DNA of 58,813 nucleotides, counting the filler, from Barthelona sp. PAP020 (lineage: Eukaryota): assembly GCA_040182905.1 (NCBI GenBank). It is 2 parts of 2 records of this genome, joined end to end, with 100 filler letters (N's around TTAATTAATTAA, not from the genome) between each part and the next. Parts side by side here need not be neighbours in the genome. Positions count along the whole stretch, not along the records: positions 1 to 29,387 come from JARQWU010000119.1; 1 more part is not named here. One strand, 5' to 3'. Within the stretch, counting starts at the first letter, position 1, and the number at the start of each line of letters is the position of its first letter. The position numbers and the translations under genes were made by a program. Below, in pieces: positions 42 through 57,883 of the stretch. The notes under the pieces were generated by a model, which did not search any database, was not told where the DNA came from, and saw nothing but the letters and a program-made list of their open reading frames with translations.

Positions 42-3000
42 GTTTATAGACTTTGTTTCTGAGAGTTTGGGATTTTATTGGGGTGATCGAACTTGTCTTG
101 AGCGTAATTGATGTCGAAGGGTAGCCTTCTTTTCCAAAATTTTCTCCTTCGATTCAATTATGGTCGAGTTAGCATATTTCAGCGCCATCGCATCTGATGC
201 CCAACCGCCTGCATCTTTTAGTAATTCCATATCCTTCCCCTCCTCCCATAGTTCTTTTGCTCTCCCTCTCCTTAATGAATGAGGGGTTATGGTATCTGGG
301 AAACTCCGTTCTCTCGTCCAGTTATGCATTAGTTTCTCAGTTTGCTTCATGATTTCTTTCTTTTCATAGAAAGTGCCGAAGAAAGTCTTTGATTGATTTG
401 CTCCCGTTCTTTGGTAAAATTGACCCCCTCTTGTGTGGAAATGGCGCAGTTCTTCTTCCATAAGAACGCTTCTCTTCCATCTTCCTACTTTGGATGAAAG
501 TATGTTTATGACAATGTGATCTCTCTCTTTTGTCAGAATATTACTGTTACTTCTCAATAAATCGTCCTTCCTGGAACACGTGAAGAAAAGGGCCAATATG
601 TTGTCAATTACATCTGTTGATGTGCTTTCTGTGAGATCTCTTCTGCTCTCGATATAACTTATCAAATCCAGCAGTTGATCCCTATTGATGCCTATCGTGT
701 CTTTAATGTTATGGTCTTCATGACCTCTATTTCTCTTCACATACCGAATGGTGGCATCTCTTGTGTTTTCAAAAGATGCGCTCTGTTTCCACCCAAGTGC
801 TTCCCAAAAGAAAGTTACTGCACTGTACAGATACTGCAGTCGTTGTAGTCCTTTCTTGTATCTACCGTTGGACGCTCTTTCATCCCCCGCCTCTTTAATG
901 AATGAATGTAAGACCATTTCTGCTTTTTCATTTGGCGTGGACGGGATCTGGTCTTCTCTTTTTGCGTAGAAGTTTATAAAGTCCGTGAATACTGCATGAT
1001 ACCCTTTCCAGGTTTGATCAGCGATTGAGCCCTTCTTTATGTCCCATAGGGTAGCGTTAGCTGGAGAATACACATCCACTACTTGCTGCTCTTCTCTGTT
1101 TCTTTTTGGTGATAACCTACAAGCTAGCTTTTGACCCGAAATTATGAAGTCTGACCTCTTCCCTTGGATTGTGTGATATCTCCACGGGAGCCATGCTCTT
1201 GTTGGTACACCTCTTACCTTTACTTCTGATTTAAATTTCATAGCCCTTAACATTAGATCTAATATCATGTTTTCGGCAGTTTCCTTATATAGCAGGACCT
1301 GACCTATCCTCTCAATTTCAGCGAAGAATAGCATGCTTTCATATCCAACTGCACCATAATCTCCTTCTTCTTCACCAATTGGGTTTATCTCTTCTGGTAG
1401 AATATCCTTTTCAGTGTCGCTTTGCATATGCTTTTGAAACATATCAGTTGTTACTGTTGTAGGGAAATTCCCTGATTTTGATTTTAGTTTCTCTTGTCTC
1501 AGAACTCTTCTTAGTTGTCTACTTTTCCCTTGTAAACTTTTCCCTGTTCGATTCTTTAGCCTTGGACACATTCTTACCATGCTAAAAGTCTCTAACGTAT
1601 AATCCGGAATATCAAAAGCAGTAGGGCATAATGTTAGGTCCGAGAATAAACCTCCACGTGGCAGTGCATAATGCTTACCACGGGATAACATGTCTGCGGC
1701 CTTGTTCTTTGCCGACGGAATCCACATCGGAATGACTTTACAATTTAATTTGTTTATTCTTTTCCAAATTCTATCTGCCGTTGTGCGCATGCCCTGATTT
1801 TTATGCTTGGCTTTCCTGAATGCACTTAATGCTGACTGATTATCAATCAGCCAGATCCAGCAACCATTGAGTGCGAGATCTTCGTTTATGTTTAAGGCGT
1901 CTTCTAGTGCCTGTAGCTCTAGGAGTGCAATATTGCTTGAGCTACTTACTTTTCTTGACTGCATTCTTGTCGTATCTTCAGTTTTTATTGCGATCCCTTT
2001 CTTTAACGGAGAAGCATCTGTTGCCACTATAGCTGTGATTACTCTTGGAGAGAGATCTCCTTTTATTTTCTCTTTTAAAAGAATACTTATTGATTCCTCC
2101 AGTGATATCGGGAGTTCGATATTAAGATGGCCATATTTTGCACAGAATATTTCCATCGAGTCTATTTTTAGCAGTTTCATTTTATGTTTTATCAAATTTG
2201 CCACCTGTAATGAATTCTCTCGATATCTTTGGGAGACTATTGCTGCTGCCTGTAGCTTTCCTTGCAAACTCATGAGTTCGGAGATTTTCATTTCATTCTT
2301 CACACTTTCTAACATTTTTTCCCTTTTCTTTTCTGGTAACCTAATACTACGCTCCTTTAGGTCCAGATCGAAGCCCAGATATTCTATACTTTGACTAGGA
2401 AATTGGATCTTCTCCTCTTTAACTTTAAAACCAACGAAATTTAATATTTCTAGACATCTTTTCAAAGCTTTTTCTGCATCAGCTTTTGTCTCTCCACCGA
2501 TTAGCACGTCATCTACGTATTGTAAAACAAACACACCCTCTGATCTTAGTGTTTCTGTTACTATTTGTAGCACCATGGTGAACATTTGAGCAGCGATGGC
2601 TGAACCAAAAGGTAGTCTTTTGGCTCCGTAGAATTTATTGCCAACCTCTACTGTTGTGAGGTTTATCCATTCTTTGTCCAATGGGATATGTGTATATCCC
2701 GACTGGATGTCTATCACTGCTGCGAATTCCGGGATCAGCGGGAAATATCTTGTGGTATTCAGCTCTGTTGGCCACAACAGAGATTGTGCATTTAACGGTC
2801 TACAGTCTAGTATTGGTCTTATTGTTCCATCCTTCTTTGGTACTGCACCTAATGCTGCCTTTAATGTACCTGGACCTTTTACTTCCTGCAATACTCCTTC
2901 CTGTATCCATTGGTTTAAAACATCTTTTTCTTTATCTTTTGCCCAGTTCTTAACCTCCACCGTGATGTTGGTCTCTGGATCATGCATCGCTGGTGCGCCT

Positions 3001-4124
3001 GTTATTATCTTTTCCAGTAGTTGAGTTTCTTCTTTTGTATATTTCAAGTGTTTAGCGAGTTGTGCAAAATTTTCCCATTTCCATCCCGGGCTTCCTTTTA
3101 ATTGTGCAGCCTGATGTTCTTTTGAGATTTCTTGGTGTCTTGGTAATACAGGGGCTTTTATAAGTTTGTCGTTAATATTGCTCAAGTTTTCTCTTTCTTT
3201 TCTTCTTTTCTTTTCTCTTCTGTGTGGTAACTGACTTTTGAGTCTCTTTTCTTGTGTGAAAGGTTTATCTGTTATTTCTTTCTCTCCTGAAAAATAAACC
3301 TCATTACCCTTTTTATTATTATAACTTCTTTCTTTATCACTTCTCTGGAAGTAAAAACGGTCAGGAGTATTTAAAGATACCTTATTAAAACTGTCCATAT
3401 CTTGTATTAATGAATCGAGTTTTTTCGTGTGCGATTTCTCTTCGAACATTCGGATCCATGCCTTATGCATCGCTCTTTCTATATCTGTTACTTCTGAGTT
3501 ATCGTTCGTATTACTAAGTATTTCAATAAATGCTTTAGTCACATAGGCCATCTTCTGTGCTTTGGCCCAATCGTTTTCTTTGAATTGGTACCTTTGCACC
3601 AGGTTGTTCAATCTTTCCATGGGATTCTCTCCTTCCACCATTGCTTTTTCAGACCAGCGTGAGGCTCTTTTAGGGTCTTGTATCATCAATGCGATGTTTC
3701 CCGTTACCTGCCTGCATGTCTCACTCGCAGTATTCTCAATGACTTCGTCGATATTCATTATGTCAGCTGTTCTTTTTCTCTCTTTCTTTTTCTTTTCTTT
3801 CTTTTCTTGTTCTTTTCTTTCTTGGCTTTGTGAAAATTTTATCGCTTCTAATATCTGTTGGAAGCGGTTTTCCATCGAGTTCTCTAGATTTTCAAATGCT
3901 TCTTTCGTCACAAACCTTTCCTCGTTCTTAGTTTCTTGGGGCATTCTAGATAAAATACGTAATCTTAGAATGTGGGCTTGCTGTATAGAGCAGAAAATAA
4001 AACTTATGTAGATCTATTTCACTTTACCGCCAAAACGATTGTTACTAATCACTTCCAATATTGGAAACTTTGTCTACGTATGTGATTATCTCTCTCTGTT
4101 ACGATAATCAGGGCGTCTATAAAC
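42..4124 (-). mobile_element. Tyrosine-recombinase (DIRS-class) retrotransposon, apparently intact, single ORF
   Basis: Contains the RT-RNase H-YR ORF 75-3944. Bounded by the inverted repeat GTTTATAGAC (42-51) / GTCTATAAAC (4115-4124). Visibly more GC-rich than the flanks. The boundaries are inferred from the IR only. Confidence 0.8.
75..3944 (-). CDS. Gag-like / reverse transcriptase / RNase H / degenerate MT-like linker / tyrosine recombinase polyprotein (1289 aa)
   Basis: RT motifs VPKKDG..RPILDCRPLN, IDIQSGYTHI, LPFG and YVDD (2508-2519). DIRS-type RNase H motifs ATDAS, LELQA, IDNQ and NKAADMLSR. YR catalytic R (TCSR), K (SSKV), HSLRRG (264-281), GGW and Y (LKYAN). Confidence 0.93.
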   Translation of the reverse strand: MPQETKNEERFVTKEAFENLENSMENRFQQILEAIKFSQSQERKEQEKKEKKKKERKRTADIMNIDEVIENTASETCRQVTGNIALMIQDPKRASRWSEKAMVEGENPMERLNNLVQRYQFKENDWAKAQKMAYVTKAFIEILSNTNDNSEVTDIERAMHKAWIRMFEEKSHTKKLDSLIQDMDSFNKVSLNTPDRFYFQRSDKERSYNNKKGNEVYFSGEKEITDKPFTQEKRLKSQLPHRREKKRRKERENLSNINDKLIKAPVLPRHQEISKEHQAAQLKGSPGWKWENFAQLAKHLKYTKEETQLLEKIITGAPAMHDPETNITVEVKNWAKDKEKDVLNQWIQEGVLQEVKGPGTLKAALGAVPKKDGTIRPILDCRPLNAQSLLWPTELNTTRYFPLIPEFAAVIDIQSGYTHIPLDKEWINLTTVEVGNKFYGAKRLPFGSAIAAQMFTMVLQIVTETLRSEGVFVLQYVDDVLIGGETKADAEKALKRCLEILNFVGFKVKEEKIQFPSQSIEYLGFDLDLKERSIRLPEKKREKMLESVKNEMKISELMSLQGKLQAAAIVSQRYRENSLQVANLIKHKMKLLKIDSMEIFCAKYGHLNIELPISLEESISILLKEKIKGDLSPRVITAIVATDASPLKKGIAIKTEDTTRMQSRKVSSSSNIALLELQALEDALNINEDLALNGCWIWLIDNQSALSAFRKAKHKNQGMRTTADRIWKRINKLNCKVIPMWIPSAKNKAADMLSRGKHYALPRGGLFSDLTLCPTAFDIPDYTLETFSMVRMCPRLKNRTGKSLQGKSRQLRRVLRQEKLKSKSGNFPTTVTTDMFQKHMQSDTEKDILPEEINPIGEEEGDYGAVGYESMLFFAEIERIGQVLLYKETAENMILDLMLRAMKFKSEVKVRGVPTRAWLPWRYHTIQGKRSDFIISGQKLACRLSPKRNREEQQVVDVYSPANATLWDIKKGSIADQTWKGYHAVFTDFINFYAKREDQIPSTPNEKAEMVLHSFIKEAGDERASNGRYKKGLQRLQYLYSAVTFFWEALGWKQSASFENTRDATIRYVKRNRGHEDHNIKDTIGINRDQLLDLISYIESRRDLTESTSTDVIDNILALFFTCSRKDDLLRSNSNILTKERDHIVINILSSKVGRWKRSVLMEEELRHFHTRGGQFYQRTGANQSKTFFGTFYEKKEIMKQTEKLMHNWTRERSFPDTITPHSLRRGRAKELWEEGKDMELLKDAGGWASDAMALKYANSTIIESKEKILEKKATLRHQLRSRQVRSPQ

Positions 4125-6536: not shown

Positions 6537-7720
6537 TCAATCATCGTCATCATCATCATTATCATAATCACTTTTATTAGTCTGTTTGTCTGTAAATAAG
6601 CACACATTACCATAGTTAGCTGTGTTGATAGGAACCAAATCCAAACATGTATCAACAATCATATTGTACTCCATTTTATTTATATTAACACCTACAGAAA
6701 CTAATTATCTGATAATTTGAGGGTTCATGTTCAGCATAATTAGATTTAATGACACCTCAACACCCCTTTTTGATAGTTCAATTAGTTCAAACAGATGTGA
6801 ATAACAATGAGACACAATCGAAAAAACCTTGATAGTATTGTCTTTACATCGTCCACAGACCAGCTGTTTCTTTTCAGGTGATATAGCAAAAGAAAAATCA
6901 TAGCCATTGTAAGAACAAGGAACCTTTTGAAACTCCTGGAAACAATTCACATTGTATGAGGTAATATAACCATCACTAGACATATAAAATAAAGGATGCA
7001 ATTTTACCTATTTAATAATTATCCCATGCTTCACCACACAAATCAAATGCATGGATAAGTGTTCCGTCATCCATGTTCCGCAGTTTGATGGTTTTTAACA
7101 AATCACCAAAGGCAATTATTCCTTTGGAAACTTGGAAATCAATGGCAGAAACGGCATGATCCAGATTGAATGTATGAACAATAGAGAGATTTTCAGCGTT
7201 AATCAACGTAGTACAATCAAAACTGCCAAATAACAGATATCTACCATCTCATGAAAGTTTTACTCTGAAAATAGGTTTGCAATGAACTCTTTTCTCCAAA
7301 AAAACATCACCGCTATTTATATCACATTTTCGAAGTAATCCAGCATCACCATTAGAATACACATAATTGGAGCAATTGGAAAAACAAATACCATAAACAA
7401 CAACATCATTGCTCAACCTGCGCAATATGGAGAAATCTGGAAGATTGTACACAATGACAGTTGCATCATTCGAACATGTGGCCAACTTTTGTTCAATTAG
7501 TATATATATATCTTGTATGTCTTTCGGAGACTCAGTCTTTTAGTTGCTACATCAAATACATGGACATGCGGAAAACTTCAAGCCACAGAATATTTACTAT
7601 CAGGAGAGTATTGAATATAATACACATCATTAGAACCAAATTCTTTAATTTCACTCACACTGTCTTCATCAATCTTCAGAAGAAACATATTAAGAATAGT
7701 TTTCTTCTTCAATTCATCAC
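6537..7720 (-). pseudogene. WD40-repeat protein pseudogene carrying the C-terminal domain shared with the ankyrin genes
   Basis: WD40 motifs YSPDSKY, ATCSNDATVIVYN, LS*DGRYLLFGSFD and ISPEKKQLVCG..DNTIKVF. Broken by in-frame stops (7249, 6705 and one near 7580) and frameshifts. Reading through 6705 continues LVSVGV...DDDDDD to a stop at 6537. Confidence 0.85.
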
Positions 7721-7814
7721 TTGAATCAAAAGACAAGTAAAAACTATCAACAAAAAAAAATCAAACAAAATTTTTCAAACAAAAGAATAGTGATTCAATC
7801 TGTGAAATGAAATT

Positions 7815-8899: not shown

Positions 8900-11800
8900 T
8901 TAATCATCAGCATCACTTTCATCATCTTCCATCTCTTTATCAATATACTCACGCATATTGCCACCATTTCTTTCATTGATGTCGATCAAATCCCAACACA
9001 ATTCGATTGTCATGTCAAAATCTCTTTGATTCATATAGACTCCAGCACTCACAAATTCCCGAATGATAACACTGTTCACATTCATTGCAACAAGTGTTGA
9101 CAATAAATACCCTTGATTCTTTACCAGTTCAATTAACTCAGATTTGGACAAAGGCTCAAATTTCAAATCAACAGGCTTGCCACTCTCCAATTGATGCTTC
9201 AAATTAGGACAGCTCAAAAAGCAGTATAAATTGTATGTTTGCCGTTCCTCAACACATGCATACAATCTATTGAAAAACAACAACATTCCTACACCATCTA
9301 TGTTTGGTTTGGCACAATCTAGAAGCATTTTGGCAATATCAAGATGACCTGCTTGACAACTTATGTTAAATGGAGAATTCCCATTATTGCAACACAAATT
9401 AACATCAGAACCATGATTTAGGAGCATTTTAGCAACATCAAAAAGTCCATTTTGACAACAAATTAACAATGGAGAAGCACCATTATTCTTACACAAATTA
9501 ACATCAGATCCATGGTCCAAAAGCATTTTAGCAACATCAACATGGCCACTACAACAACTGATATACAATGGAGAAGTACCATTATTTCTACATAAATTAA
9601 TATCAGCTCCGTAATTTAAGAGCATTTTGGCAAGATCAAGATGCCCTTTGTGACAACTACAAAACAATGGAGAAGTACCATCTTTCTTGCAAAAATTAAC
9701 ATCTGCTCCATAATCCAAGAGAATTTTAATAATATCAAGATGTCCATTTTGACAACAAATGAACAATATAGAAACACCAAAATAATCACAGAAATTAACA
9801 TCAGATCCATTATCCAAGAGCATTTTAGCAACATCAAGATGGCCATTATAACAACTCATATACAATGGAGAATCAACAATTTTTCTACATAAATTAATAT
9901 CAGCTCCATGATCCAAGAGCATTTCGGCAACATCAAGATGACCTTTTTTACAACTGCTGTGCAATGGAGAAGTGCCAATCTTATCACACAAATTAACATC
10001 TGCCCCATGATCCAAGAGCATTTTGGCAACATCAAGATGACCATTATAACAACTGATGTTCAATGGAGAATATCCATCATTTTCACATAAATCAATATCA
10101 GCTCCATAATCCAATAGCATTCTTGCAACATCAAGATGACCTTCTTGACAACTGATGTACAATGGAGAAGCACCATCATTCATACACAAAATAATATCAG
10201 CTCCATTATTCAAGAGCATTTTGGCAACATCAAGATGACCTTGATGACAACTAATAAACAATGGAGAAGCACCATCTTTCGTGCACAAATTAACATCAGC
10301 GCCATGATCCAAAACCATTCTGGCAATATCAAGATGGCCATTTTGACAACTAATGTACAATGGAGAAGCACCATCATTCATACACAAATTAACATCTGCT
10401 CCACAATCCAAGAGCATTTTGGCAACATCAAGATGATCATTTTCACAACTGATGTACAATGGAGAAAATCCACCATGATTACACAAATTAACATCTGCTC
10501 CACAATCCAAGAGCATTTTGGCAACATCAAGATGACCATTTTGACAACTAATGTGCAATGGAGAAGAACCAACATACATACACAAATTAACGTCAGCGCC
10601 ATGATCTAAAAGCATTTTGGCAACATCAACATGACCATTTTGACAACTGATGTACAATGGAGAAAATCCACCGTTCCTGCATAAATTAATATCAGCTCCA
10701 TAATCCAACAGCATTTCAGCAACATCAAAGTGGCCTTTGTGACAACTAATATACAATGAAGAAGTACCATCAGTCGTACATAAATTAACATCAGATCCAT
10801 TATTCAAGAGCATTTTAGCAACACAAAGGTGATCATTTTCACAAGTGATATACAATGGAGAAGCACCGTTATTCATACACAACTTAACATTAGCTTTATG
10901 ATTCACTAGCATTTTGGCAACATCAAGATGACCATTTTGACAACTAATATATAACGGAGAAGCGCCATTATTCTTACACAAATTAACATCAGCTCCATGA
11001 TCTAAGAGCACTTTAACAACATCAAGATGACCTTTTTGACAACTAATATACAATGGAGAAGCACCATTATTATTGCATAAACTAACATCAGCCCCAAAAT
11101 CCAACAGAAAATCAACAACATTGACATGCCCATCAAAACAAGCTCCCCAAAGCGATGTTCTTCCTTCCTTGCCCTGCTTGTTTACATCAACACCAGCTTT
11201 GACACACTGCTTTACAACCTCAAGATTACCATCACAAGCTGCATAATAGATCTTCTTTGGTCTTCCATTATCTTCAAATCCATCTACATCAAACCCATCT
11301 GGAACAACAACTTGATCCATGTTATGCTTGACATATGGCTCAACTTCCTCTTCAATACCTGTCTCTTCAATAACAGTATCGACAAGCATCTTCAGATAAC
11401 CAGCAATTAACTTGAAAGACGGACGCTTGGAAGGGTTTTCATCAAAACACAGCTTTACAATACCATGGCCAGGAATCGAATCTATCATCTCGTCAGAATA
11501 TGGCAATTTCCCATTAATCAAATATCTGAATGGTTCATCATCCACAGCATCACAAGGACAAACTTCTGTCATCACATAAAGCATCATCACTGCAAACGCC
11601 CACACATCAACAGCCCTTGGATCTATCTTGTCTTCATTTTCCCCAACAAGGATCTCAGGAGATAGATACGAAACTGCACTGTTCATGTCAACCATCAATA
11701 AACTGTTGGCATCTTTCACTGTCCAAAAATCGCTCAAAGCAGGAATGAACTTTCCATTAAAATTCCTCAAAAGAACGTTAGTGGGCTTCAAATTGCCATG

Positions 11801-12379
11801 AGTTAAACCGCATGCGTGACAATAATCCAATGCGGAAGCAACCTGCATGAGTATTGTGAGCTTTTCCATCAAAGAAAGGTTGGGTATTTCTTGCTCAAGA
11901 AAAGAGGTGCAGTATTCCATAACTATTCCAGTTTTACCGTCGATCTCAGTCACACCATGAATTTGACGAAGGAAAGGATGATTTAGCTTCATGGGAACGT
12001 ATTGCTTGAGGAAATCGTGTTTTTTTGGCTTTTTGTGGAATAATTTGATAGCAACAATGATTCCCTCTCTTTCAGCAGTAATTAAGCGTCCAAATACCCC
12101 TGACACAAAATTGGACTTAAGCATTTTAAGGGTAGATCCAACAATTTCAGTTGGTTTTAGGGAATCCATGAGCTCTGTAAATGATTGGAGATTGTTTATA
12201 CGATTCTTGCCCTTTGATTGCCAGTTTGCCATAAAACTGGTGTCAACCTGTTTTTCATTTGGTTCTACTATCTTTTTAGTGCCTAAAATATCAGAGTCAA
12301 AAACCATTAGGTGTAAAAAAAAAAGAAAATAAAGGCTAAAAATGTTTAATAATCTTTTTTTACAGTAGTATTCATTCAT
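8900..12379 (-). CDS. Pseudokinase + ~20 ankyrin repeats + unrecognised C-terminal domain (1159 aa; start uncertain)
   Basis: Kinase fold with VAIK, HGNLKPTN (catalytic Asp replaced), DFW, SPE, DVWAF and KRPSF. 33-aa repeats GxSPLYISCxxGHLDVAKMLLDxGADVNLC. Confidence 0.92.
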   Translation of the reverse strand: MNEYYCKKRLLNIFSLYFLFFLHLMVFDSDILGTKKIVEPNEKQVDTSFMANWQSKGKNRINNLQSFTELMDSLKPTEIVGSTLKMLKSNFVSGVFGRLITAEREGIIVAIKLFHKKPKKHDFLKQYVPMKLNHPFLRQIHGVTEIDGKTGIVMEYCTSFLEQEIPNLSLMEKLTILMQVASALDYCHACGLTHGNLKPTNVLLRNFNGKFIPALSDFWTVKDANSLLMVDMNSAVSYLSPEILVGENEDKIDPRAVDVWAFAVMMLYVMTEVCPCDAVDDEPFRYLINGKLPYSDEMIDSIPGHGIVKLCFDENPSKRPSFKLIAGYLKMLVDTVIEETGIEEEVEPYVKHNMDQVVVPDGFDVDGFEDNGRPKKIYYAACDGNLEVVKQCVKAGVDVNKQGKEGRTSLWGACFDGHVNVVDFLLDFGADVSLCNNNGASPLYISCQKGHLDVVKVLLDHGADVNLCKNNGASPLYISCQNGHLDVAKMLVNHKANVKLCMNNGASPLYITCENDHLCVAKMLLNNGSDVNLCTTDGTSSLYISCHKGHFDVAEMLLDYGADINLCRNGGFSPLYISCQNGHVDVAKMLLDHGADVNLCMYVGSSPLHISCQNGHLDVAKMLLDCGADVNLCNHGGFSPLYISCENDHLDVAKMLLDCGADVNLCMNDGASPLYISCQNGHLDIARMVLDHGADVNLCTKDGASPLFISCHQGHLDVAKMLLNNGADIILCMNDGASPLYISCQEGHLDVARMLLDYGADIDLCENDGYSPLNISCYNGHLDVAKMLLDHGADVNLCDKIGTSPLHSSCKKGHLDVAEMLLDHGADINLCRKIVDSPLYMSCYNGHLDVAKMLLDNGSDVNFCDYFGVSILFICCQNGHLDIIKILLDYGADVNFCKKDGTSPLFCSCHKGHLDLAKMLLNYGADINLCRNNGTSPLYISCCSGHVDVAKMLLDHGSDVNLCKNNGASPLLICCQNGLFDVAKMLLNHGSDVNLCCNNGNSPFNISCQAGHLDIAKMLLDCAKPNIDGVGMLLFFNRLYACVEERQTYNLYCFLSCPNLKHQLESGKPVDLKFEPLSKSELIELVKNQGYLLSTLVAMNVNSVIIREFVSAGVYMNQRDFDMTIELCWDLIDINERNGGNMREYIDKEMEDDESDADD
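9300..11260 (-). repeat. Tandem 99-bp ankyrin-coding array, ~20 units with high internal nucleotide identity
   Basis: Recurrent plus-strand blocks caatggagaagcacc, acatcaagatgacc and aaattaacatc at 99-bp period. Confidence 0.95.
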
Positions 12380-18492: not shown

Positions 18493-20859
18493 ATGCAAGA
18501 AGCTTGTTTAATTCAAGTAATTAATATTATTAAGCGTTTTCTAATTTTATAGATTGAACATTTAACTGATCAATTAGTTTTTCAACAAGAATTAATTTCA
18601 AAGATTAAAAATGAATTAAAAGATTTGTTGAATACTTATAAACAATTAAAAAATGATTCGAAGGAACAATTAAATGAAGAATTGAAGTTAAAGAAGAAAT
18701 TATCAATATTGGAAAAAGAATTTGATTTTAATTCCTTGAAATTAGCCGAATTATCTGAATCCAAAATTGAAACTGAATTATTAAAAAAGAATTTAGCAGA
18801 GTATTGTGAAGAAATGAAAAATGTATTGAATCAAAAGAATGTTGAAATTAAACGATTGAAAGAAACCAAAACAAATAAAATGATTGATGATATTAATCAA
18901 ACAAAATGTTTTGAATTAAAAAAAGAAAACGAATATTTAAAAGATGTTTTGAAAGAAATTTCCACAGAATATTTTAATTTTGATGAAAAGAAAGCAAATG
19001 AAAACATTATTAAATTAATTTCAGATGAATTGAATAGATCTCAAGAGAAAACAAATGAATTATTTGATTCTTTCAATAATTCTCAAAAATTGGCCTCAGA
19101 ATTGAAAGAACAATTAATAAGATTAAAGAAAATCAATGAAACTTTGTTATATGAAAGTTCTTCAATACAAAGTGAAAATGAAGATTTATTAAAAGAAAAG
19201 GAACAATTATTAAACAAGTTTACTGAATTGAATGATTATTTAAAATTGAAATATGAAGACATTGTTCGATTATCAACGATTAAAGAAAAATTTTCCATTG
19301 AAGTTAAAAAAATAAGTGATGAAATGAATTCAATGGAAAATACCATTAAAAGTTTAATTTTTGAAGGAAAAAACAAGGAAAAAGATATTTTAAAAAAAGA
19401 AGAATTGTACAAAGAATTTCTAGTTGTTAATGAAGACTTAATTGTAAAGTTTGATCGATTGAATAAGAAATATTGTAAATTGAAAGCAAAATATGAAGAC
19501 ATTACTGAAGAGATTTTAAGTTTACAAATGATAGATATCAGTAGTGATCATTCAAAACAAGCAACAGAAATTGCAGAATTGAATAAACAAATTGATATTT
19601 GTAAAGAGACAATTCAACAAAAGCATTCAGAAATGAAAATTTGCACCAAAAAATTTTTGGAAATGAAAAAAATACAAAGAAACTTTGAAACTTTTGAAAA
19701 ACAATATAATGATGATAAGATTGTATTTGAAGGGTTTAAACAAATTTTTGACAAAAGTTTGAAAACTTTTGATGAAAAGTATGATTCTTTTGAAGATAAT
19801 ATAATAAATTTGAAAAATGCTATCAAAAATAAAGAAGAAGACATGAATAAACAAGATGAAATTTTGGAAATTAACAAGAAGTTGATTGAAAAAAAAAAAA
19901 AGAAAATAGAAAAGTTAAAAAATGCCATTGAAAATACTGAAGAATCATTTGTTATGTTTTCTACAGAATTAGATGGTTTTAATATGCAATATGAAAGGTT
20001 ACAACAAAAAATTGATGAAAAAACATTAGAAATCATGTTTTTTAAACAAAGAAATAAAAATATTGAGCAAAAAAACAATGAGTTGCTTTATAGAGCAAAT
20101 TTTGAGATTGTTACTAGCATTGTTAATAATGATATTTTGAATGAAGTTGATAATCTTATTTATCAACATGAAATTAATCATTACGAACAATTAATGATAG
20201 ATAAGATTGTAATTTTAGATGAATCTGAGAAAATAATAGATAATTTAAAGATATGTATTGACAATCATCAGAATCAATTAGAAAAAAGTCAAAAAGTCAC
20301 TAAAAATTTATTATTAAATCAAAGTAGATATAATAGGTTAGAAATACAAAATGATCGTTTGAAAGATTCAGTAAAATATTTGAAATTTTCAGAAAAGGAA
20401 AATGCTAGAAAGATTGAAGCAATAAACGAAGAAAATGGTATGTTAAAAGAGTCAAATAATAAACTATTCACTTCAATAGATGAATTAGAAAAACAATTGA
20501 ATGAAAGAAATTCTTACATTCAAAATTTAACCCAACAATTAGAAAAACGTCAACCAACAATCGAATTCAGTCATCAAACAGAATTTATTGATGATGAATC
20601 AATCAATGATGACAATGAATCAACACAATCAAATACTTTTGTTTTGAATAACGATAAAAACAATAATCAGAGTGTTAACAATACAACTAACACATTTAAT
20701 TTCTTTTCTACTGAAACACCTAATGCTGTGAATGTCTTAAATAATGAAAATATTGACCCTCAAATGATGCATTCGAAACAAATGATTACACCATCATTAT
20801 CAGTTAGAAGATCTATGTCAAGGAGACATATGCTCAGATCAATGTCAGGTAAGAGGTAA
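18493..20859 (+). CDS. Long coiled-coil hypothetical protein; exons 18493-18516 and 18553-20859 (5' end uncertain)
   Basis: Heptad-rich K/E/L ORF. An upstream ATG is joined in frame by the 36-nt intron. Confidence 0.75.
18517..18552 (+). other. Spliceosomal intron, 36 nt
   Basis: GTAATT...CTAATTTTATAG; its terminal TAG is an in-frame stop that splicing would remove. Confidence 0.7.
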
Positions 20860-22369: not shown

Positions 22370-25300
22370 TTAAAACTCACAATCGATTAACAATGGTTGG
22401 TAATCTTGACAAAACACTTCCAATCGAAAATAACAAGTATCAAATTTTTTCATTGTTAAAGGAGAAATAACCAATTTGTTATCAAAATGCTTTTCAGGAC
22501 AAAAAATGAACTCTCTCACAATTGTCTGATTCTTGGAAAAGTTAAAAGGGGGTAAAGGTGAAAGTTCATTCAAACTTATGTGTTCGCACAAACCAATACT
22601 GATAGGAATCAATTTTTGATTCAAATTCTTTTGAGTCAAAACAATTCGAACTAAAACGTTCTCGTTAAGTGATTTGTCTTCAAAAGTTAAAAAAAAAGAG
22701 TCTGTTTTTAAAATCTTGAAATTTTCAATGCAGGCAAAAGGACTAATGAATCCAAAAGTTTCAAATTTTTTGAAATATTTCGTTATGAAATTCACATAAA
22801 TCGTGTCAAAATATTTTAAAAAGTTTGACCAACTTAAAGAATGAATGGATACAATTTCTTTGCTCTTTTGTTTAACGCTTTGAACAATTACAGTCTTTTC
22901 AGAAGGAATTATCTCCAGCACATGATATGCATGTGAAGGCTCAAGAAACGTTTCATTTATGATTTTCAAACTCAACTGTCTAGTACCAGCACCATAAAGG
23001 ATACAAGAATCACCATTTTTTTCATCCTTTTGTTTTAAGTCTTTATGCATACGTTTAAACAATCGATCAACTTTATCTGGAAAATCAAGTAAGCTATCGA
23101 TTATGATATAATCTCCATAAGTAGGCTGCATTATCATGTTCACTAAATGCATATGTCCACCATCTTCTAAAACAGAATATCCTCCCCCATAAACACTAAC
23201 GATAGCACTTTCTAATAAATTGACGGCAACATTAATTTTTGGACCCAAATTTTCCGCAGCGACCATTTTTCCATTTTTACAAGGTAAATATCCATTCACA
23301 ACAACATAAATTGGTTCATTATTGTTATAAAGCCTAAATAAATACAAATCATTTTCTTTATTATGTGCAATCAGAAAGTTTTCTTTTGGAAAATGAAATA
23401 ATGAATTGAGAAAGAAGCAATCATTGATTTCACCTTGATATACGTTATCAAGGTCTAAATGTTCGATATCAATGAAAGCTGAACTTCTTTCCTTAATTTC
23501 TGAGAAATGTAAACGTTCATAATGTCCATAATTGATATCCAATGGTTGTAATAAACCTTTGTGAAAATCGAATAAAATTTTGGTCTCATATTCTTCATAA
23601 GATGATAAAAAATCTTCTGTTTGCTTAATTTCATTTGTTTGCTGAATGTATTGAGTTAATTTATCCAATTTAGTTCTTTGAGGAAAGAATAAAGCTTTGG
23701 TTAATTTTTTAATAATTTCTTTGTTATTAGATGTGTCAAATGAGTGATGATAACTCTTTAACAAATCATGAATTTTAAGGATTTTAGAATTTTGCTGATT
23801 TTTTTCAACAGATAATTTTAAATTGATATATTGTTGTTCATTTTTACGAATTCTTTCTTCTAATTCATTAAATGAAGGACTTGAATTGATATTATAAAGA
23901 TTTGACAATAGAATGATATTTAATTCATGAAAAACTAAAAAAATAGAAGGTGTATTAATAAATTGAATTTTTAATACTTTAAACATGTTATCGATATGTT
24001 TTTTACGAACAGTTCGAGCATGGAAATAAATATCTGCTAGACAATGACACATAAATAAACTTTCATGTTCAATTAATAATTTTCGATTATGAATAATGAT
24101 ACTCTTATCTTCATAAAAATTCAATTTTTGTAGATCATGAATTAATTGATTGGATTTCATAATAAAACTTTTTTGAAGCAAATTTTTTTGTTTTACTTTG
24201 AATTTATAAAAATTTCCCAAATGATCATATGAATAACCATAAATTTTTGAATATTTTTTCAAAACATTTTCAATATTTTCAGAAACATTTGATAAATATT
24301 CCAAATGTTTCTTGAAATTATAATAAAATAAAATATTTGATGCAAAAATTTGAAAAGTATATTGTAAAATAATGATAATTATGATAATCTTTGATAAAAA
24401 AACATATTTATCATAAAATAAACAAAAGATAATAATTAAACTGAAATAATTGAAATAAAAATTCACAAAATATCGTTTTGAATATTTTTTTATCTTTATT
24501 TCTTTATTTTTCTTTTCAAAAATTGCTACAAAATGATGAAATCTTTGATAAGGAAATATTACCAAAGATTCATTAGTACCAATGATTTGTAAAACAAAAT
24601 CTCGTACAATTATTAATTCAAAAATGAAGAAAATTACTAAAATCAAATTTTCATTAATATTTGATTCAATATGACAAAAATAAATGAATATACTGAAACA
24701 TAAAGCAGAAAAAAAAACATTGATTTTTGATTGTATAATTAAAAGACCCATCATCAAAGCAATAACCAATAAAATATCAGAAAAATGTTTTAACTGCATT
24801 TGTAAAAATATACTCTTGACAATCAATATGCTTAAGATTAAGTAAATTAAATATATGAAATATTTTGAATTATTTCGAATATTTGGTTTTTTTTGCTCAA
24901 ATACAATACAAATAAAGATTAAACATAAAGTTCCAACAATATTAAAACCAAGAAAATGTGTTTTTTCGGGATAAAATAATATGATAATTAAATACAAGAT
25001 ATAAGCCAATAAATTTATTCTTTGAAATTTATTTTGTAGAATAATTGTTAAACTATTGATAAAAATTAAATATTGAAAAGTTATGTTGTTAATAAAGTCA
25101 ATTTTGGAATTTGAACGAAATAATTTGTAAAATATACAAATACCAATGGTTAAAATTAATAAATAATGCTTTTTAGTTTTAAAAGAAGAAGAAAAAAAAG
25201 AAAAATAAAAGATGATCAGATTATATATAAAAATGATGAAATCATATTCATAAAAAATAGCTGAACTTACAATTAACACCAAAAGAATCAAATAATTCAC

Positions 25301-26383
25301 AATTTCAATATCAAATGCATACAATAAAAATAAACAAAATGTAAAAACTAAAAAGTACAAATCAAACTTTCCAAAAAGTAATAAATTTATCCCAAAAATT
25401 ATGAAACTTATCCAATACATTATTAAATCATGAATTTTTTCTCTTTTTATTCTATTTTTTTTTCTTTTCACAATATTACCTTTATAATTGAATAAATCTT
25501 TCCTATTTTTATCATTCTTTATCATTATTAAATGAAAAGTTATAAAAATTGGTATTATCGATCTGATTCCATCCAAAAATTCAAAAATTACAAAATTTTT
25601 TACCACTACTAAAAATAGTACATACAACCATTTTACGTTTATCGAAACTATCTCAAAAATTCCCAAAAGAAAAAATTGAAAAGAAAAATCAAAGAAATTA
25701 AGATAAATTTTGAATTTTTCCGTTTCATTGAATAAATAAAAATTCATTAAAAATATAAAAACATTAATAACATGAAATTTTACATGAATTCTTTTCCAAA
25801 AACTTTCATCATCAGTTGTTTCTTTCAATGCAATCAAATCATGATGAAATATGAAATTAAAAGGATTAAATATTTTGATCTTTTTTTGATCAATAAAAAC
25901 ATATTTGAAAAAAATGGTAAAATTGACCATTATAGAAATACAAAAAAAATACTCTTTAAATTCCCTTGAAAGATATGTTATAGCAGTCAATATAACACTC
26001 ACATAGAACGTATTATCATAAACAGCAATAGGAAAATTTATTTTGGTAAAAGAAAAATAATCATCACATACTATCAAGACTAAAAACCAATAAGTCCACA
26101 ATATTAACAATAAAAAAATAGAAAAACCTAACGAAATATCTTTATAATGAAACCAATTCATTAATAAAAGAAAATTACTCAAAAAAAAGAAAAAAAAACA
26201 TAAATATTGACAAAAAGTAAATACTACAAAATGTTTCGATATATCGTTAATATAAATATTACCTTCAAATTTTAAAAATAATAAGAGAAACGAAAAAAAA
26301 CATATTAAACTGGGTAATATCAAAAAAAAATATGTTATTGCATTAGGAAAATTATCAACTATTATCTCATTCAAGAAATCCAT
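22370..26383 (-). CDS. Multi-pass membrane protein with a C-terminal calpain (CysPc + C2L) domain
   Basis: Many hydrophobic segments in the first ~690 aa, followed by QGEINDCFFL, YVVVNGYLP, LLESA, GGH and HAYHVL. The NPWG Asn is absent (VQSVKQ). Confidence 0.85.
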   Translation of the reverse strand: MDFLNEIIVDNFPNAITYFFLILPSLICFFSFLLLFLKFEGNIYINDISKHFVVFTFCQYLCFFFFFLSNFLLLMNWFHYKDISLGFSIFLLLILWTYWFLVLIVCDDYFSFTKINFPIAVYDNTFYVSVILTAITYLSREFKEYFFCISIMVNFTIFFKYVFIDQKKIKIFNPFNFIFHHDLIALKETTDDESFWKRIHVKFHVINVFIFLMNFYLFNETEKFKIYLNFFDFSFQFFLLGIFEIVSINVKWLYVLFLVVVKNFVIFEFLDGIRSIIPIFITFHLIMIKNDKNRKDLFNYKGNIVKRKKNRIKREKIHDLIMYWISFIIFGINLLLFGKFDLYFLVFTFCLFLLYAFDIEIVNYLILLVLIVSSAIFYEYDFIIFIYNLIIFYFSFFSSSFKTKKHYLLILTIGICIFYKLFRSNSKIDFINNITFQYLIFINSLTIILQNKFQRINLLAYILYLIIILFYPEKTHFLGFNIVGTLCLIFICIVFEQKKPNIRNNSKYFIYLIYLILSILIVKSIFLQMQLKHFSDILLVIALMMGLLIIQSKINVFFSALCFSIFIYFCHIESNINENLILVIFFIFELIIVRDFVLQIIGTNESLVIFPYQRFHHFVAIFEKKNKEIKIKKYSKRYFVNFYFNYFSLIIIFCLFYDKYVFLSKIIIIIIILQYTFQIFASNILFYYNFKKHLEYLSNVSENIENVLKKYSKIYGYSYDHLGNFYKFKVKQKNLLQKSFIMKSNQLIHDLQKLNFYEDKSIIIHNRKLLIEHESLFMCHCLADIYFHARTVRKKHIDNMFKVLKIQFINTPSIFLVFHELNIILLSNLYNINSSPSFNELEERIRKNEQQYINLKLSVEKNQQNSKILKIHDLLKSYHHSFDTSNNKEIIKKLTKALFFPQRTKLDKLTQYIQQTNEIKQTEDFLSSYEEYETKILFDFHKGLLQPLDINYGHYERLHFSEIKERSSAFIDIEHLDLDNVYQGEINDCFFLNSLFHFPKENFLIAHNKENDLYLFRLYNNNEPIYVVVNGYLPCKNGKMVAAENLGPKINVAVNLLESAIVSVYGGGYSVLEDGGHMHLVNMIMQPTYGDYIIIDSLLDFPDKVDRLFKRMHKDLKQKDEKNGDSCILYGAGTRQLSLKIINETFLEPSHAYHVLEIIPSEKTVIVQSVKQKSKEIVSIHSLSWSNFLKYFDTIYVNFITKYFKKFETFGFISPFACIENFKILKTDSFFLTFEDKSLNENVLVRIVLTQKNLNQKLIPISIGLCEHISLNELSPLPPFNFSKNQTIVREFIFCPEKHFDNKLVISPLTMKKFDTCYFRLEVFCQDYQPLLIDCEF

Positions 26384-47261: not shown

Positions 47262-47753
47262 TTTTTATCGTTTATCACATGTCTTTTTTACTTTGTGTGC
47301 AGTAAGATAAATAAATAATAGGATAGAAGGTCTTATATTGGTGTTATGTTTCACAATAAAGTAGTCGGATTTTTTTATTTTCATCAGATTTGGATGTACA
47401 TATTACATTTTAATTTTATAATTTAAACTGTAAATATAAACAGTGTTTTCATTTGGAAAATTAAAGGTAAGTAGAATAGTAAAAGAATGGTAGAAGTTAA
47501 ATGGAAAAGAAAAAATTTTTTTTTGAGAGTTTGACGCTTGTTTGTGTATTTAAACTTTAGAAAACAAATTATGAGAATTTAATGTGATAGAAATACTATA
47601 ATTATAATATTAATATTGATTTGGAATGAAACTAATTTTTTGTTTTTTTGGTTACTGTATAAAATACAGTTAGTAATTGTTAAAATTACCAAGTTTTCAA
47701 ATGAATTTAAATACAATCAATAAATTTTGTTATTTTATTGTTGTAATGAAAGA

Positions 47754-56401: not shown

Positions 56402-57883
56402 CTAATCATCAGCATCACTCTCATCATCTTCTATCTCTTCATCAATATACTGACGCATATTGCCACCATTTCTTTCATTAATGTCAACCAAATCCCAACA
56501 ATAGTTGATTGACATATCGAAATCTCTTTGATTCATGTAAGTTCCAGCACTTACAAATTCTCGAATGATAACACTGTTTACATTCATTGCAACAAGGGTT
56601 GATAAAAGATAGCCCTCATTCTTCACCAATTCAATTAACTCAGATTTAGAAAAATGTTCAAATTTCAAATCCACATGTTCACCACTCTCCAATTGTTGCT
56701 TCAAATTGGAACAGCTCAAAATGGAGTATCCATTGTTTTTTTTCCATTCCTCGTCACTTGTATACAATCTGTTGAAAAATAATACCATATCTTCACCATA
56801 TACATTTATTTCGCGACAACTAAGAAGCATTTTGGCAATTTCAAGATGACCTTGATGACAACTTATATACAATGAAGACCATCTATCATTTACACAGATA
56901 TTAAGATCAGCTCCATTATCCAAAAGTATTTTAGCAATATTAAGGTGACCATTTTGACAGCTGATATACAATGGAGACGCACCATTCTTTTTGCACAAAT
57001 TAACATCAACATCATTCTCCAAAAGCATCTTGATCACATCAAGATAACCATTCAGACAGCTGATGTACAATGGAGAAGCACCATTTTTCTCACACAAATT
57101 TATATCAGCCCCATGATCTAAAAGCATTTTGACAACATCAAGATGACCATTTTGACAACTAATATACAATGGAGAAGCATCATTATTGTTGGACAAATTT
57201 ACATCAGCTCCATGGTCCAAGACCATTTTAGCAACATCAAGATGACCTGTTTCGCAACTGATATACAATGGAGAAGCACCATTATTGTCGCATAAATTAA
57301 TATCAGCCCCATGATCCAAGAGTATTTTGACAAAATCAAGATGACCATTATAACAACAAACAAACAATGAAGAAAAACCGTTATTAGTGCATAAATTAAC
57401 ATCTGCTCCATGATCCAAGAGCAGTGCGGCAACAGAAAAATGACCATTTTGACAGCTAATATATAATGGAGAAGCATCATTATTGTTGGACAAATTAACA
57501 TCTGCTCCATGATCAATGAGCATTCTGGCAACATCAAGATGACCATTTTGACAACTGACATAGAATGGCGAAAATCCACCAATCATACTCAAATCAACAT
57601 CAGCACCAAAATCCAACAAAACCTCAACAACTTCGATTTGCCCATTTATAGCAGCTCCATACAATGATGTCCTTCCTTCCTTTCCCTGTTTGTTCACATC
57701 CACGCCAGCTTTGATACACTGCTTGACAAGCTCCAGATTTCCATCACATGCAGCCCAATAAATTTTCTTTGGACGGCCATCTTCTTCAAATCCATTCACA
57801 TCAACTGCATCTGGAACAACAACTTGATCCATGTTATGCTTGATGTAAGGATCAAGTTCCTCAACTACACTATTAACAACCAT
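56402..57883 (-). CDS. Ankyrin-repeat protein (~10 repeats) + shared C-terminal domain; kinase-less paralog of 8900-12379
   Basis: The linker KHNMDQVVVPD, the cap repeat and the C-terminus ending EDDESDADD are nearly identical to the paralog. Confidence 0.92.
   Translation of the reverse strand: MVVNSVVEELDPYIKHNMDQVVVPDAVDVNGFEEDGRPKKIYWAACDGNLELVKQCIKAGVDVNKQGKEGRTSLYGAAINGQIEVVEVLLDFGADVDLSMIGGFSPFYVSCQNGHLDVARMLIDHGADVNLSNNNDASPLYISCQNGHFSVAALLLDHGADVNLCTNNGFSSLFVCCYNGHLDFVKILLDHGADINLCDNNGASPLYISCETGHLDVAKMVLDHGADVNLSNNNDASPLYISCQNGHLDVVKMLLDHGADINLCEKNGASPLYISCLNGYLDVIKMLLENDVDVNLCKKNGASPLYISCQNGHLNIAKILLDNGADLNICVNDRWSSLYISCHQGHLEIAKMLLSCREINVYGEDMVLFFNRLYTSDEEWKKNNGYSILSCSNLKQQLESGEHVDLKFEHFSKSELIELVKNEGYLLSTLVAMNVNSVIIREFVSAGTYMNQRDFDMSINYCWDLVDINERNGGNMRQYIDEEIEDDESDADD

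Follow-up and report, generated by a model that had tools for sequence, protein, structure and literature searches.

The window analysed here is a 58,813-nucleotide stretch of DNA from Barthelona sp. PAP020, composed of two parts from two records with filler between them. Its minus strand carries a long gene, gene A, which joins a kinase-like domain, an ankyrin array and a C-terminal domain (CTD), together with a shorter paralog and a third sequence of the same CTD family. The features are as follows.

8900..12379, minus strand: gene A, a 1159-codon open reading frame with a kinase-like domain, 20 ankyrin units and a CTD
11411..12100, minus strand: protein-kinase-like domain of gene A (aa 94-323; Pfam Pkinase, E = 7.7e-22)
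9293..11272, minus strand: ankyrin array of gene A, 20 units of 99 bp (aa 370-1029)
8903..9292, minus strand: CTD of gene A, a linker and a conserved helical core of ~82 residues (8903-9148)
6570..7736, minus strand: third member of the CTD family, a WD40 propeller with a CTD, directly downstream of gene A
56402..57883, minus strand: paralog B, 493 aa, with 10 ankyrin units and the same CTD
56795-57784, minus strand: the 10 ankyrin units of paralog B
56405-56794, minus strand: CTD of paralog B

Gene A and its relatives in the window

The reading frame of gene A is unbroken over 1159 aa in the ORF listing of the window, and at its base composition the chance of 1159 stop-free codons in this AT-rich DNA is 8e-39. 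Translation probably begins at Met25 (12307), the position at which both Barthelona homologs start (alignment A3). The only Pfam families recognized are kinase and ankyrin for gene A and ankyrin alone for paralog B. The neighbouring genes in the window (ARPC3, PA28, RRS1, UTP15, a Vps54-like protein, a DEAD-box helicase and GH31) are eukaryotic housekeeping genes, and a viral or bacterial origin was therefore rejected. Two plus-strand ORFs, at 9641-9892 and 10136-10609, were rejected as genes; they are repetitive antisense read-through of the 99-bp unit.

When aligned to RIPK1 and Aurora A, the kinase-like head of gene A keeps the VAIK lysine and carries HGN in place of H-x-D and DFW in place of DFG. 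The set expected of an active kinase (VAIK Lys, HRD Asp and DFG) is incomplete, and the domain is predicted to be catalytically inactive. Its homologs in Barthelona retain the motifs (HGD and DFG in P0005, HRD and DFG in P0121), and the same head precedes ankyrin repeats in P0005 and a WD40 domain in P0121. A word-based search with the head returned two close relatives, both from Barthelona. The best 60 solved-structure matches include RIPK1, Aurora A, TYK2 and RSK, at E values of 2e-13 to 2e-12, with no Nek found among these 60. Paralog B has no kinase domain, and the 930 bp upstream of it contain no remnant of one.

The third family member, at 6570..7736, was identified by tblastn: P0146, P0147 and P0144 align to it at E = 6e-71 to 4e-40, and stops interrupt the alignments. 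It contains in-frame stops and a frame change, its CTD motif is degraded to CLDL...NYGNV, and it looks like a dead gene.

A conserved scaffold with a variable face

The array of gene A consists of tandem units that match the Pfam models of the ankyrin superfamily (Ank_2, E = 2.4e-161; Ank, E = 3.2e-140, in 16 matched stretches). All 20 units are exactly 33 residues long, with zero indels, and TRF reports a 99-bp period at 9324-11104 with 18 copies, 78% matches and 0% indels. Units A01-A02 are divergent N-terminal units, A03-A19 form the core and A20 is half divergent. The units are consensus-like, ending GADVN, and share the signature S-P-L-Y/F ... SC. Their mean pairwise identity is 66% (A03-A19), and at the DNA level 68-90 of 99 nt are identical.

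An earlier note on this DNA described a near-invariant framework with a varying beta-turn and first helix, and this description is borne out. Across A03-A20, eight positions (1, 2, 3, 5, 9, 13, 14 and 26) have an entropy of 1.8-2.9 bits per column, while the other 25 have 0-1.1 bits. Position 1 is the most variable, position 26 is occupied by H, N, Y or C, and position 33 is a conserved Cys. The residue sets that had been listed are all present, both after the glycine (A/T/F/S/Y/D/V/N) and before it (N/D/G/V/I/F), as are all of the pairs that follow SC (QK/QN/EN/HK/HQ/QE/YN/KK/CS/QA). The recurring strings were likewise recovered: GGFSP in A07, A09 and B03, CENDHL in A05 and A09, LCMNDGASP in A10 and A12, CHQGHL in A11 and B10, CYNGHLD in A13, A15 and B05, and LSNNNDASP in B04 and B07. 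The repeat numbers, given as about 20 and 10, are exactly 20 in gene A and 10 in paralog B.

The variable sites could be mapped on an AF2 model of paralog B, which is poor as a whole (mean pLDDT 54.7), with only units 1-4 and the CTD usable and the remainder below 50. In these four units (pLDDT 70-91), which show the helix-turn-helix and beta-turn arrangement of ankyrin repeats, helices span unit positions 7-13 and 17-25. This places positions 1, 2, 3 and 5 in the turn and 9 and 13 on helix 1, with 14 just past helix 1 and 26 just past helix 2.

A whole-protein homology search is dominated by generic ankyrin proteins (vertebrate ankyrin-1/3 and bivalve arrays). Among 13 control arrays, each with at least 6 extracted units, 8 have at least five of their eight most variable positions in common with gene A. 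The array of the oyster Crassostrea angulata (P0010) is most variable at 1, 2, 3, 5, 9, 10, 13 and 14, and similar positions vary in P0008 (Saccostrea), P0017 and P0004; P0035, an Aedes NACHT protein, and P0063, from the lichen fungus Pseudocyphellaria, have only 4 of 8 in common with gene A. A conserved scaffold with variable binding-surface residues thus appears to be a pattern common to ankyrin arrays generally, and not an unusual one.

Selection on the units and their age

Over all unit pairs of gene A, dN/dS is 0.26 for the framework and 1.26 for the eight variable sites, which were picked after their variability had been seen. The corresponding ratios are 0.31 and 0.55 in paralog B, and 0.27 and 0.96 for both genes combined. 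Twelve independent nearest-neighbour unit pairs gave 0.28 and 0.81, and codon models, fitted separately and over-parameterised, gave 0.21 and 0.87. At DARPin positions taken a priori the ratio is 0.93, and at the five a-priori positions 2, 3, 5, 13 and 14 it is 1.29. The 25 scaffold positions are therefore under purifying selection (dN/dS ~0.26), and a nearly neutral rate (0.8-1.3) holds for the eight beta-turn and helix-1 positions. Diversifying selection on the latter had been expected in the earlier note. The difference between the framework (0.26-0.28) and the variable positions (0.8-1.3) means that variation is not uniform along the repeat, but an excess over 1 is not demonstrated, as variable-site dN over all-site dS is 0.84 with a bootstrap CI of 0.48-1.46. 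Outside the arrays, the flanks and CTDs of the two genes are constrained: comparison of A with B gives a dN/dS of 0.22 for the N-flank and 0.12-0.19 for the CTD (0.12-0.22 in all).

The synonymous divergence between units is 0.37 for nearest neighbours (pS 0.29) and 0.43-0.62 overall; between genes A and B, dS is 0.67 in the flank and 0.56 in the CTD. The array units are therefore old, their synonymous divergence of ~0.4-0.6 being comparable to that of the paralog split.

Recombination among units

The array arose by tandem amplification of one 99-bp unit, and its copies have since diverged by point substitution. Codons at the variable sites are mostly one or two substitutions away from the majority codon. 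The closest pair of units in gene A is identical at 90 of 99 nt, with none nearer, and exact repeats within the array do not exceed 41 bp, save for one 56-bp stretch between adjacent units. We looked for higher-order blocks as a lag structure in unit identity at 1-11 units and found none, and in paralog B a 297-bp TRF period fits no better than the 99-bp period (77% and 76%). The PHI test is non-significant in gene A (p = 0.51 and 0.11). It gave p = 0.12 and 0.015 in paralog B, and 0.22 and 0.042 for the two genes pooled, the lower value in each case coming from the 30-nt window. A conversion-like tract was detected in 1 of 276 unit pairs (global P = 0.03).

The residue triple at positions 2, 3 and 5 is common to 23 unit pairs, compared with 7.2 expected, and 0 of 3000 column shuffles reached 23. 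This excess indicates that the recurrence of variable-residue combinations is real and non-random. Units with common combinations are not closer to each other in their framework DNA (60.0 versus 62.1 of 75), and the recurrence could reflect either selection or short conversion tracts.

These results bear on the proposal in the earlier note that the locus is a natural DARPin-like library of shuffled repeat blocks, in which recombination drives the generation of binding diversity. The constant scaffold and the variable canonical binding face stand. Neither shuffled blocks nor recombination-driven diversity is supported, given the non-significant PHI test of gene A, the single conversion-like tract among 276 pairs, the maximum unit identity of 90/99, the age of the units (dS 0.37-0.6) and an identity within gene A (78.3 of 99 nt) that is about the same as that between genes (76.0).

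The C-terminal domain and its family

The core of the CTD carries a CWDL-x-D-x-N-E-x-NGGNM motif and an acidic tail, and its linker resembles the last WD40 blade of relatives in the family (alignments A1 and A2). A HMMER search of 1.84 billion representatives returned 36 matches, and all 10 that were looked up are Barthelona sp. PAP020 transcripts; the closest relative is 47% identical. The domain sits on WD40, ankyrin and armadillo-like proteins, and caps WD40 propellers of ~400 aa. P0168, a 998-aa protein with ankyrin repeats and the CTD, was considered as a second kinase-headed member and dropped, as BLASTP shows no similarity in the N-terminal part.

The AF2 model of the CTD has a pLDDT of 79.7. 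Foldseek against the PDB gave nothing at E <= 0.001, and the best of 48,161 chains in VIA-align reached a Z of 3.4 (rmsd 4.8 over 81 residues). Some ankyrin- and armadillo-like rows score weakly, at Z 2.6-2.8, and no SOCS box, F-box or PRANC domain is among the matches listed for these chains. There was no usable match in the ESM Atlas, and Pfam gave only EppA_BapA, below threshold. A literature search on Barthelona and ankyrin found nothing relevant to barthelonid ankyrin or kinase families, and the main text of the BaSk genome paper (PMC11316075) contains none of the words 'ankyrin', 'kinase' and 'WD40'.

The CTD may tie the family to a common partner or cellular place. A bolder version of this idea, to which we attach a small probability, is that the CTD marks a barthelonid-specific superfamily of modular receptors, in which swappable ankyrin, WD40 and armadillo-like recognition domains, some with live or dead kinases, would be plugged into one machine, as in SOCS-box (ASB/WSB) or F-box substrate receptors. 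The ankyrin face, evolving near-neutrally to positively, would then provide target diversity, and gene A would be a WD40-CTD gene in which an ankyrin array took the place of the propeller, with part of the last blade left behind.

Origin and likely role of the array

Overall, we consider it probable that 9293-11272 is the 20-unit ankyrin domain of an intact 1159-codon gene with a kinase-like domain devoid of the catalytic Asp and a family-specific CTD, likely serving as a non-catalytic protein-docking scaffold. In such a scaffold, the long solenoid would bind one or several putative protein partners along its variable groove and the dead kinase domain could act as a docking or regulatory module, while the CTD might give the family members one shared partner or cellular location, much as the ankyrin arrays of Giardia Nek and Protein 21.1 proteins take part in localisation. 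On this reading, gene A encodes an ankyrin scaffold of the ordinary kind that belongs to a lineage-specific family. Its units probably differ through relaxed or weakly diversifying change at surface residues, and not through an active recombination mechanism.

A natural binder library is in our view unlikely. In such a library, units and paralogs would exchange sequence by unequal crossing-over and gene conversion, which would hold the scaffold constant and recombine the variable cassettes, and positive selection on the binding face would create new specificities, as in fungal NLR sensors. This reading would account for variability confined to the canonical binding face, for dN/dS of 1.26 at the eight variable sites of gene A and 1.29 at positions 2, 3, 5, 13 and 14, and for variable-residue combinations that recur non-adjacently and across paralogs above the shuffle expectation. 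Also in its favour are the unit numbers (20 and 10), the PHI result in B (p = 0.015), the one conversion-like tract (global P = 0.03) and the exchange of ankyrin for WD40 on the same kinase head and CTD, which recalls the swapping of repeats described for fungal NLRs (PMC4986451). However, dN/dS is not significantly above 1 (CI 0.48-1.46) at sites that were chosen post hoc, and the same sites give 0.55 in paralog B. Unit dS is high and uniform, without near-identical units (at most 90/99), identity within gene A is close to that between genes, and PHI is non-significant in gene A. The mean identity of 66% lies below the 85% used for fungal repeats, the NOD domain is absent, and unrelated ankyrin arrays show the same positional pattern. 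As this pattern is the ankyrin default, it would be evidence of a diversity-generating mechanism only in company with a dN/dS above 1, young units or polymorphism.

Two further explanations concern the integrity of the locus. Gene A might be a decaying or unexpressed family member whose units differ by neutral drift; this is very improbable, even though its kinase catalytic residues are lost, its closest CTD relative is only 47% identical and the neighbouring family member (6570..7736) is a clear pseudogene. The transcriptome-derived protein set contains 6 of the 14 window ORFs tested, and no exact copy of either gene A or paralog B. Decay is hard to reconcile with 1159 uninterrupted codons in AT-rich DNA (P = 8e-39), with the low dN/dS of the framework (0.26), the N-flank (0.22) and the CTD (0.12-0.19), and with the exact 33-residue register kept in all 20 units. 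Least probable of all, and barely credible, is that the assembly stitched reads of several ankyrin genes into a mosaic, an idea that the existence of several family members with similar units and the 56-bp exact repeat between adjacent units might suggest. All other exact repeats are at most 41 bp long, so that ordinary reads span them; the frame and the 99-bp register are unbroken over 1980 bp, and the flanks join cleanly to the kinase domain and the CTD, both of which have homologs of the same architecture. A docking scaffold of ordinary ankyrin type remains the reading that we prefer.

Comparison with known systems

The DARPins described by Binz et al. in 2003 are reportedly randomised at positions 2, 3, 5, 13, 14 and 33 and restricted at position 26; the random positions of DARPins were chosen as the naturally variable ones. 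Gene A resembles DARPins in its consensus-like 33-residue unit ending GADVN, and five of the six positions said to be randomised (2, 3, 5, 13 and 14), together with the restricted position 26, are among its eight most variable. In contrast to DARPins, it is natural and has 20 units instead of 2-3, its position 33 is a conserved Cys, and its position 1, a fixed Asp in DARPins, varies most. The positional match is to be expected, since the consensus used for DARPins averages over natural repeats (PMC8683736).

In sequence, the array is matched best by those of bivalves, insects and a lichen fungus (43-53% identity), with unit identities that are equal or higher (0.70-0.85). These control arrays differ from gene A in having other head domains in Pfam (STAND-type or others), and they have neither a kinase-like head nor the Barthelona CTD.

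The analogy with fungal NLR sensors, also raised in the earlier note, is not supported. According to the published description, these sensors share with the Barthelona family tandem 33-residue ankyrin units that vary on the beta-hairpin and inner helix, differing numbers of repeats in related genes, and a head that is combined with either ankyrin or WD40; in fungi, repeat types (ANK, TPR and WD) are swapped on the same head (PMC4986451). However, their highly internally conserved repeats are defined by more than 85% unit identity over at least 100 aa (Dyrka et al. 2014, PMC4986451), compared with 66% in gene A, concerted evolution was not detected among the gene A units, and neither gene A nor paralog B has a NACHT or NB-ARC domain in Pfam. 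The analogy therefore fails on both unit identity and the presence of a nucleotide-binding oligomerisation domain.

The Giardia Nek and Protein 21.1 family would be the closest analogue of the gene A family. Of the Giardia Neks, 67% are described as having an N-terminal kinase followed by 1-26 ankyrin repeats and 71% as being without catalytic residues; there are also Protein 21.1 relatives that have no kinase, and deletion of a repeat altered localisation (PMC3218828). By this published description, genes A and B have the same architecture, with a kinase followed by an ankyrin array of 20 units in gene A and a kinase-less paralog carrying the same repeats. The description also matches in that most of the Giardia kinases are without catalytic residues and the family is a large, lineage-specific one in a metamonad. 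The Barthelona family differs from that of Giardia in several respects: the kinase head of gene A has no recognisable Nek identity, its best solved relatives being RIPK1 and Aurora A (E ~2e-13); the TALM motif occurs in 0 of the 30 units of A and B, which carry S-P-L-Y...SC instead; the units are consensus-like and 66% mutually identical where those of Giardia are divergent; and the family has its own CTD, common also to WD40 propellers.

A kinase-dead head on an ankyrin array with kinase-less paralogs was called unique to Giardia by Manning et al. 2011 (PMC3218828). The Barthelona genes are modestly new in adding a second metamonad lineage with such a head on a long ankyrin array and with kinase-less paralogs, and in that an undescribed CTD unites the family and occurs on WD40 propellers as well. 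If barthelonid genomes contain many such genes, they would offer a tractable case of modular intracellular-scaffold expansion in free-living anaerobic protists.

Organisation of gene A and its paralog

Gene A, which encodes a kinase-like head, an ankyrin array and a family-specific C-terminal domain (CTD), and its paralog B lie in AT-rich sequence (~30% G+C) where long uninterrupted ORFs are densely packed. The products of these ORFs are eukaryotic housekeeping proteins, namely ARPC3, proteasome activator PA28, RRS1, UTP15, a Vps54-like protein, a DEAD-box helicase, a GH31 glucosidase and a SEP-UBX protein.

8900-12379, minus strand: gene A ORF, 1159 codons
Gene A amino acids 94-323: protein-kinase domain (Pfam E=7.7e-22)
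9293-11272 (amino acids 370-1029), minus strand: gene A ankyrin array, 20 units in a 33-residue register with zero indels
56402-57883, minus strand: paralog B, 493 aa, linker and C-terminal region as in gene A, 10 ankyrin units

The ankyrin signal of gene A is very strong (Pfam Ank_2 E=2.4e-161), and its array starts with two divergent units at the N-terminal end, followed by a core of 17 and a final unit that is half divergent. Tandem Repeats Finder, which is independent of our register cut, reported 18 copies of a 99-bp period at 9324-11104 (78% matches, 0 indels). Paralog B has no kinase domain, and the 930 bp upstream hold no kinase remnant in any frame. The exact sequences of both genes are absent from the EukProt-derived protein set, although 6 of 14 ORFs from the window have an identical entry there.

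Neither homolog of the head has anything that matches codons 1-24 of gene A (12307-12379, minus), which encode a hydrophobic stretch; since both homologs begin at the Met25 position, the true start is probably Met25, the ORF's given start being too far upstream. Two antisense open frames over the array, 9641-9892 (plus, 83 aa) and 10136-10609 (plus, 157 aa), share its 99-bp period and seem to be side effects of the repetition rather than genes.

Elsewhere in the window, a 1289-aa ORF (75-3944, minus), which has no identical entry in the protein collection searched, encodes both a reverse transcriptase (RVT_1, E=9e-24) and a tyrosine recombinase (Phage_integrase, E=4.7e-7), the pairing known from DIRS-like retroelements. 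The sole match of a 1337-aa ORF (22370-26383, minus) is a weak one to calpain protease near its C-terminus (E=4e-8), which leaves the long N-terminal part without an assignment. Large ORFs of 1010, 818, 744 and 542 aa (47727-53194, 18625-20859, 33578-35206, all plus) have no Pfam match; the 542-aa ORF is an exact member of a transcriptome-derived set and is therefore expressed.

Variable positions and selection on the units

The earlier note had described the array as a natural DARPin-like library, with a constant scaffold and variable binding-face residues. This observation is confirmed, as the residue sets and recurring strings that it listed are all present in the units. By column entropy, unit positions 1, 2, 3, 5, 9, 13, 14 and 26 (1.8-2.9 bits) stand apart from the remaining 25, the framework (0-1.1 bits). 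The recurrence of variable-residue combinations also exceeds chance: the residue triple at positions 2, 3 and 5 is shared by 23 unit pairs against 7.2 expected, a number reached in none of 3000 column shuffles. In the confident part of an AlphaFold model of paralog B (units 1-4, pLDDT 70-91; the rest is poor, mean pLDDT 54.7), helices span positions 7-13 and 17-25, which places the variable positions on the beta-turn (1, 2, 3, 5), in helix 1 (9, 13), just past helix 1 (14) and just past helix 2 (26). Together these sites are the canonical ankyrin binding face.

dN/dS at the variable and framework positions of the ankyrin units
Comparison; variable; framework
All unit pairs (Nei-Gojobori), gene A, all-site dS 0.43; 1.26; 0.26
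All unit pairs (Nei-Gojobori), paralog B; 0.55; 0.31
All unit pairs (Nei-Gojobori), pooled; 0.96; 0.27
12 disjoint nearest-neighbour pairs; 0.81; 0.28
Separate codon-model fits, fixed tree (over-parameterised); 0.87; 0.21

It should be noted that the all-pairs counts are non-independent, which the disjoint nearest-neighbour pairs address, and that the eight variable sites were chosen after inspection, which they do not. At the six a-priori DARPin positions, reportedly 2, 3, 5, 13, 14 and 33, nearest-neighbour dN/dS is 0.93 (1.29 without position 33). The ratio of variable-site dN to all-site dS in these pairs is 0.84 (bootstrap CI 0.48-1.46). These comparisons of site classes yield a real, three- to five-fold contrast between variable and framework sites, but not a ratio significantly above 1.

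Origin of the unit diversity

No unit pair matches at more than 90 nt out of 99, the bulk of them falling at 70-85, and even nearest-neighbour units differ at 29% of synonymous sites. Between the two genes, dS is 0.67 in the linker and first two units (dN/dS 0.22) and 0.56 in the C-terminal region (dN/dS 0.19; 0.12 in its core). Unit divergence is comparable with this flank divergence, which dates the units to around the time of the gene duplication. Of 99 nt, units share 78.3 (gene A) and 74.7 within a gene against 76.0 between genes, hardly a difference, and no periodicity in unit identity was found at lags of 1-11 units.

The earlier note had attributed the diversity to recombination. This is not supported by the age of the units, by PHI tests of gene A (P=0.51 and 0.11; paralog B 0.12 and 0.015; pooled 0.22 and 0.042) or by a GENECONV-style permutation, in which one of 276 pairs passed the global 5% level (A04-A08, the fourth and eighth units of gene A, P=0.03). 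At the eight variable codons, one or two substitutions suffice to reach most alleles from the commonest codon. An array pieced together as an assembly mosaic is unlikely, as exact repeats within it do not exceed 41 bp, apart from a single 56-bp stretch of adjacent units. The data point to an amplification long ago, with point mutation since then under scaffold constraint, and not to ongoing shuffling.

The variability pattern of gene A is not unusual. Among 16 unrelated proteins of the homology search, 13 gave at least six 33-residue units (the anchor pattern extracted too few from P0005, P0013 and P0020), and in 10 of the 13 the entropy profile has a rank correlation of 0.5-0.7 with that of gene A; it is lower in vertebrate ankyrin-3 (0.25), ankyrin-1 (0.44) and a mosquito NACHT protein (0.11). 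In the oyster protein P0010 (unit identity 0.80), the top eight positions by variability are 1, 2, 3, 5, 9, 10, 13 and 14, a pattern which those of P0008, P0017 and P0004 resemble. As the consensus used for DARPins was obtained by averaging natural repeats, according to PMC8683736, overlap with DARPin positions is expected in any ankyrin array.

A family-specific C-terminal domain

A HMMER search with the last ~130 residues of gene A against 1.84 billion representatives returned 36 hits; the ten whose source was checked all proved to be transcripts of Barthelona sp. PAP020, the organism from which every identified relative of the family-specific domains comes. Together with the six exact ORF matches, this points to a barthelonid-like metamonad as the source of the window. 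Pfam scans of 14 hits revealed seven WD40 propellers (290-426 aa), two ankyrin proteins, one weakly armadillo-like protein, one weak and probably spurious bacterial Ig-like match and three with no match or an unrelated one. A CWDL-x-D-x-N-E-x-NGGNM motif and an acidic tail mark the conserved core of ~82 residues, which AlphaFold models as a helical bundle (pLDDT 79.7, >90 in its core), for which neither Foldseek nor VIA-align (best Z 3.4) found a fold relative.

8903-9292 and 56405-56794, minus strand: blade-like segment plus CTD of gene A and paralog B
6570-7736, minus strand: third family member, WD40 propeller plus CTD, directly downstream of gene A

After the last ankyrin unit and before the CTD core lies a segment that can be aligned to the final blade of the WD40 members (GDGYITSFN... 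vs GEDMVLFFN...), a likeness which suggests that the ankyrin array may have replaced the propeller of an ancestral WD40-CTD gene. The gene at 6570-7736 is probably a pseudogene, judging by its in-frame stops, frame change and motif decayed to CLDL and NYGNV.

The kinase-like head

An alignment with RIPK1, Aurora A and two close homologs shows that the VAIK lysine is retained in the kinase-like domain. Its catalytic loop reads H-G-N vs the required H-x-D, and D-F-W stands instead of D-F-G, so the head is predicted to be a pseudokinase; the two homologs have HGD or HRD, plus DFG. Only two close relatives of the head came out of a word-indexed search over 5.8 billion proteins, both Barthelona sp. 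PAP020 transcripts. P0005, a relative of the head, carries ankyrin repeats (54% identity). In the transcript P0121, a 43% identical head with intact HRD and DFG is fused to a linker that resembles a coiled coil and to a WD40 propeller, so that this type of head is joined to differing repeat domains.

Comparison with known systems

The most likely reading, which we consider fairly probable, is that gene A encodes a scaffold protein without catalytic activity, a member of a modular family specific to its lineage, and that its binding-face residues drift at about the neutral rate. The likeness to fungal NLRs drawn in the earlier note fails, since gene A lacks both the NOD domain and the 85% unit identity described in excerpts of PMC4986451. 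The closest functional analogue is the Giardia Nek / Protein 21.1 family, although the TALM motif of that family occurs in none of the 30 units of gene A and paralog B. Among the 60 best solved-structure matches of the head, RIPK1 and Aurora A included, there is no Nek. In the sections of PMC3218828 cited here, its members have an N-terminal kinase plus 1-26 ankyrin repeats, kinase-less relatives exist, 71% of the Nek kinases lack catalytic residues and deletion of a repeat shifts localisation; the kinase-ankyrin association was, according to those authors, found in no other species. What is modestly new here is confined to the CTD family and this parallel with Giardia.
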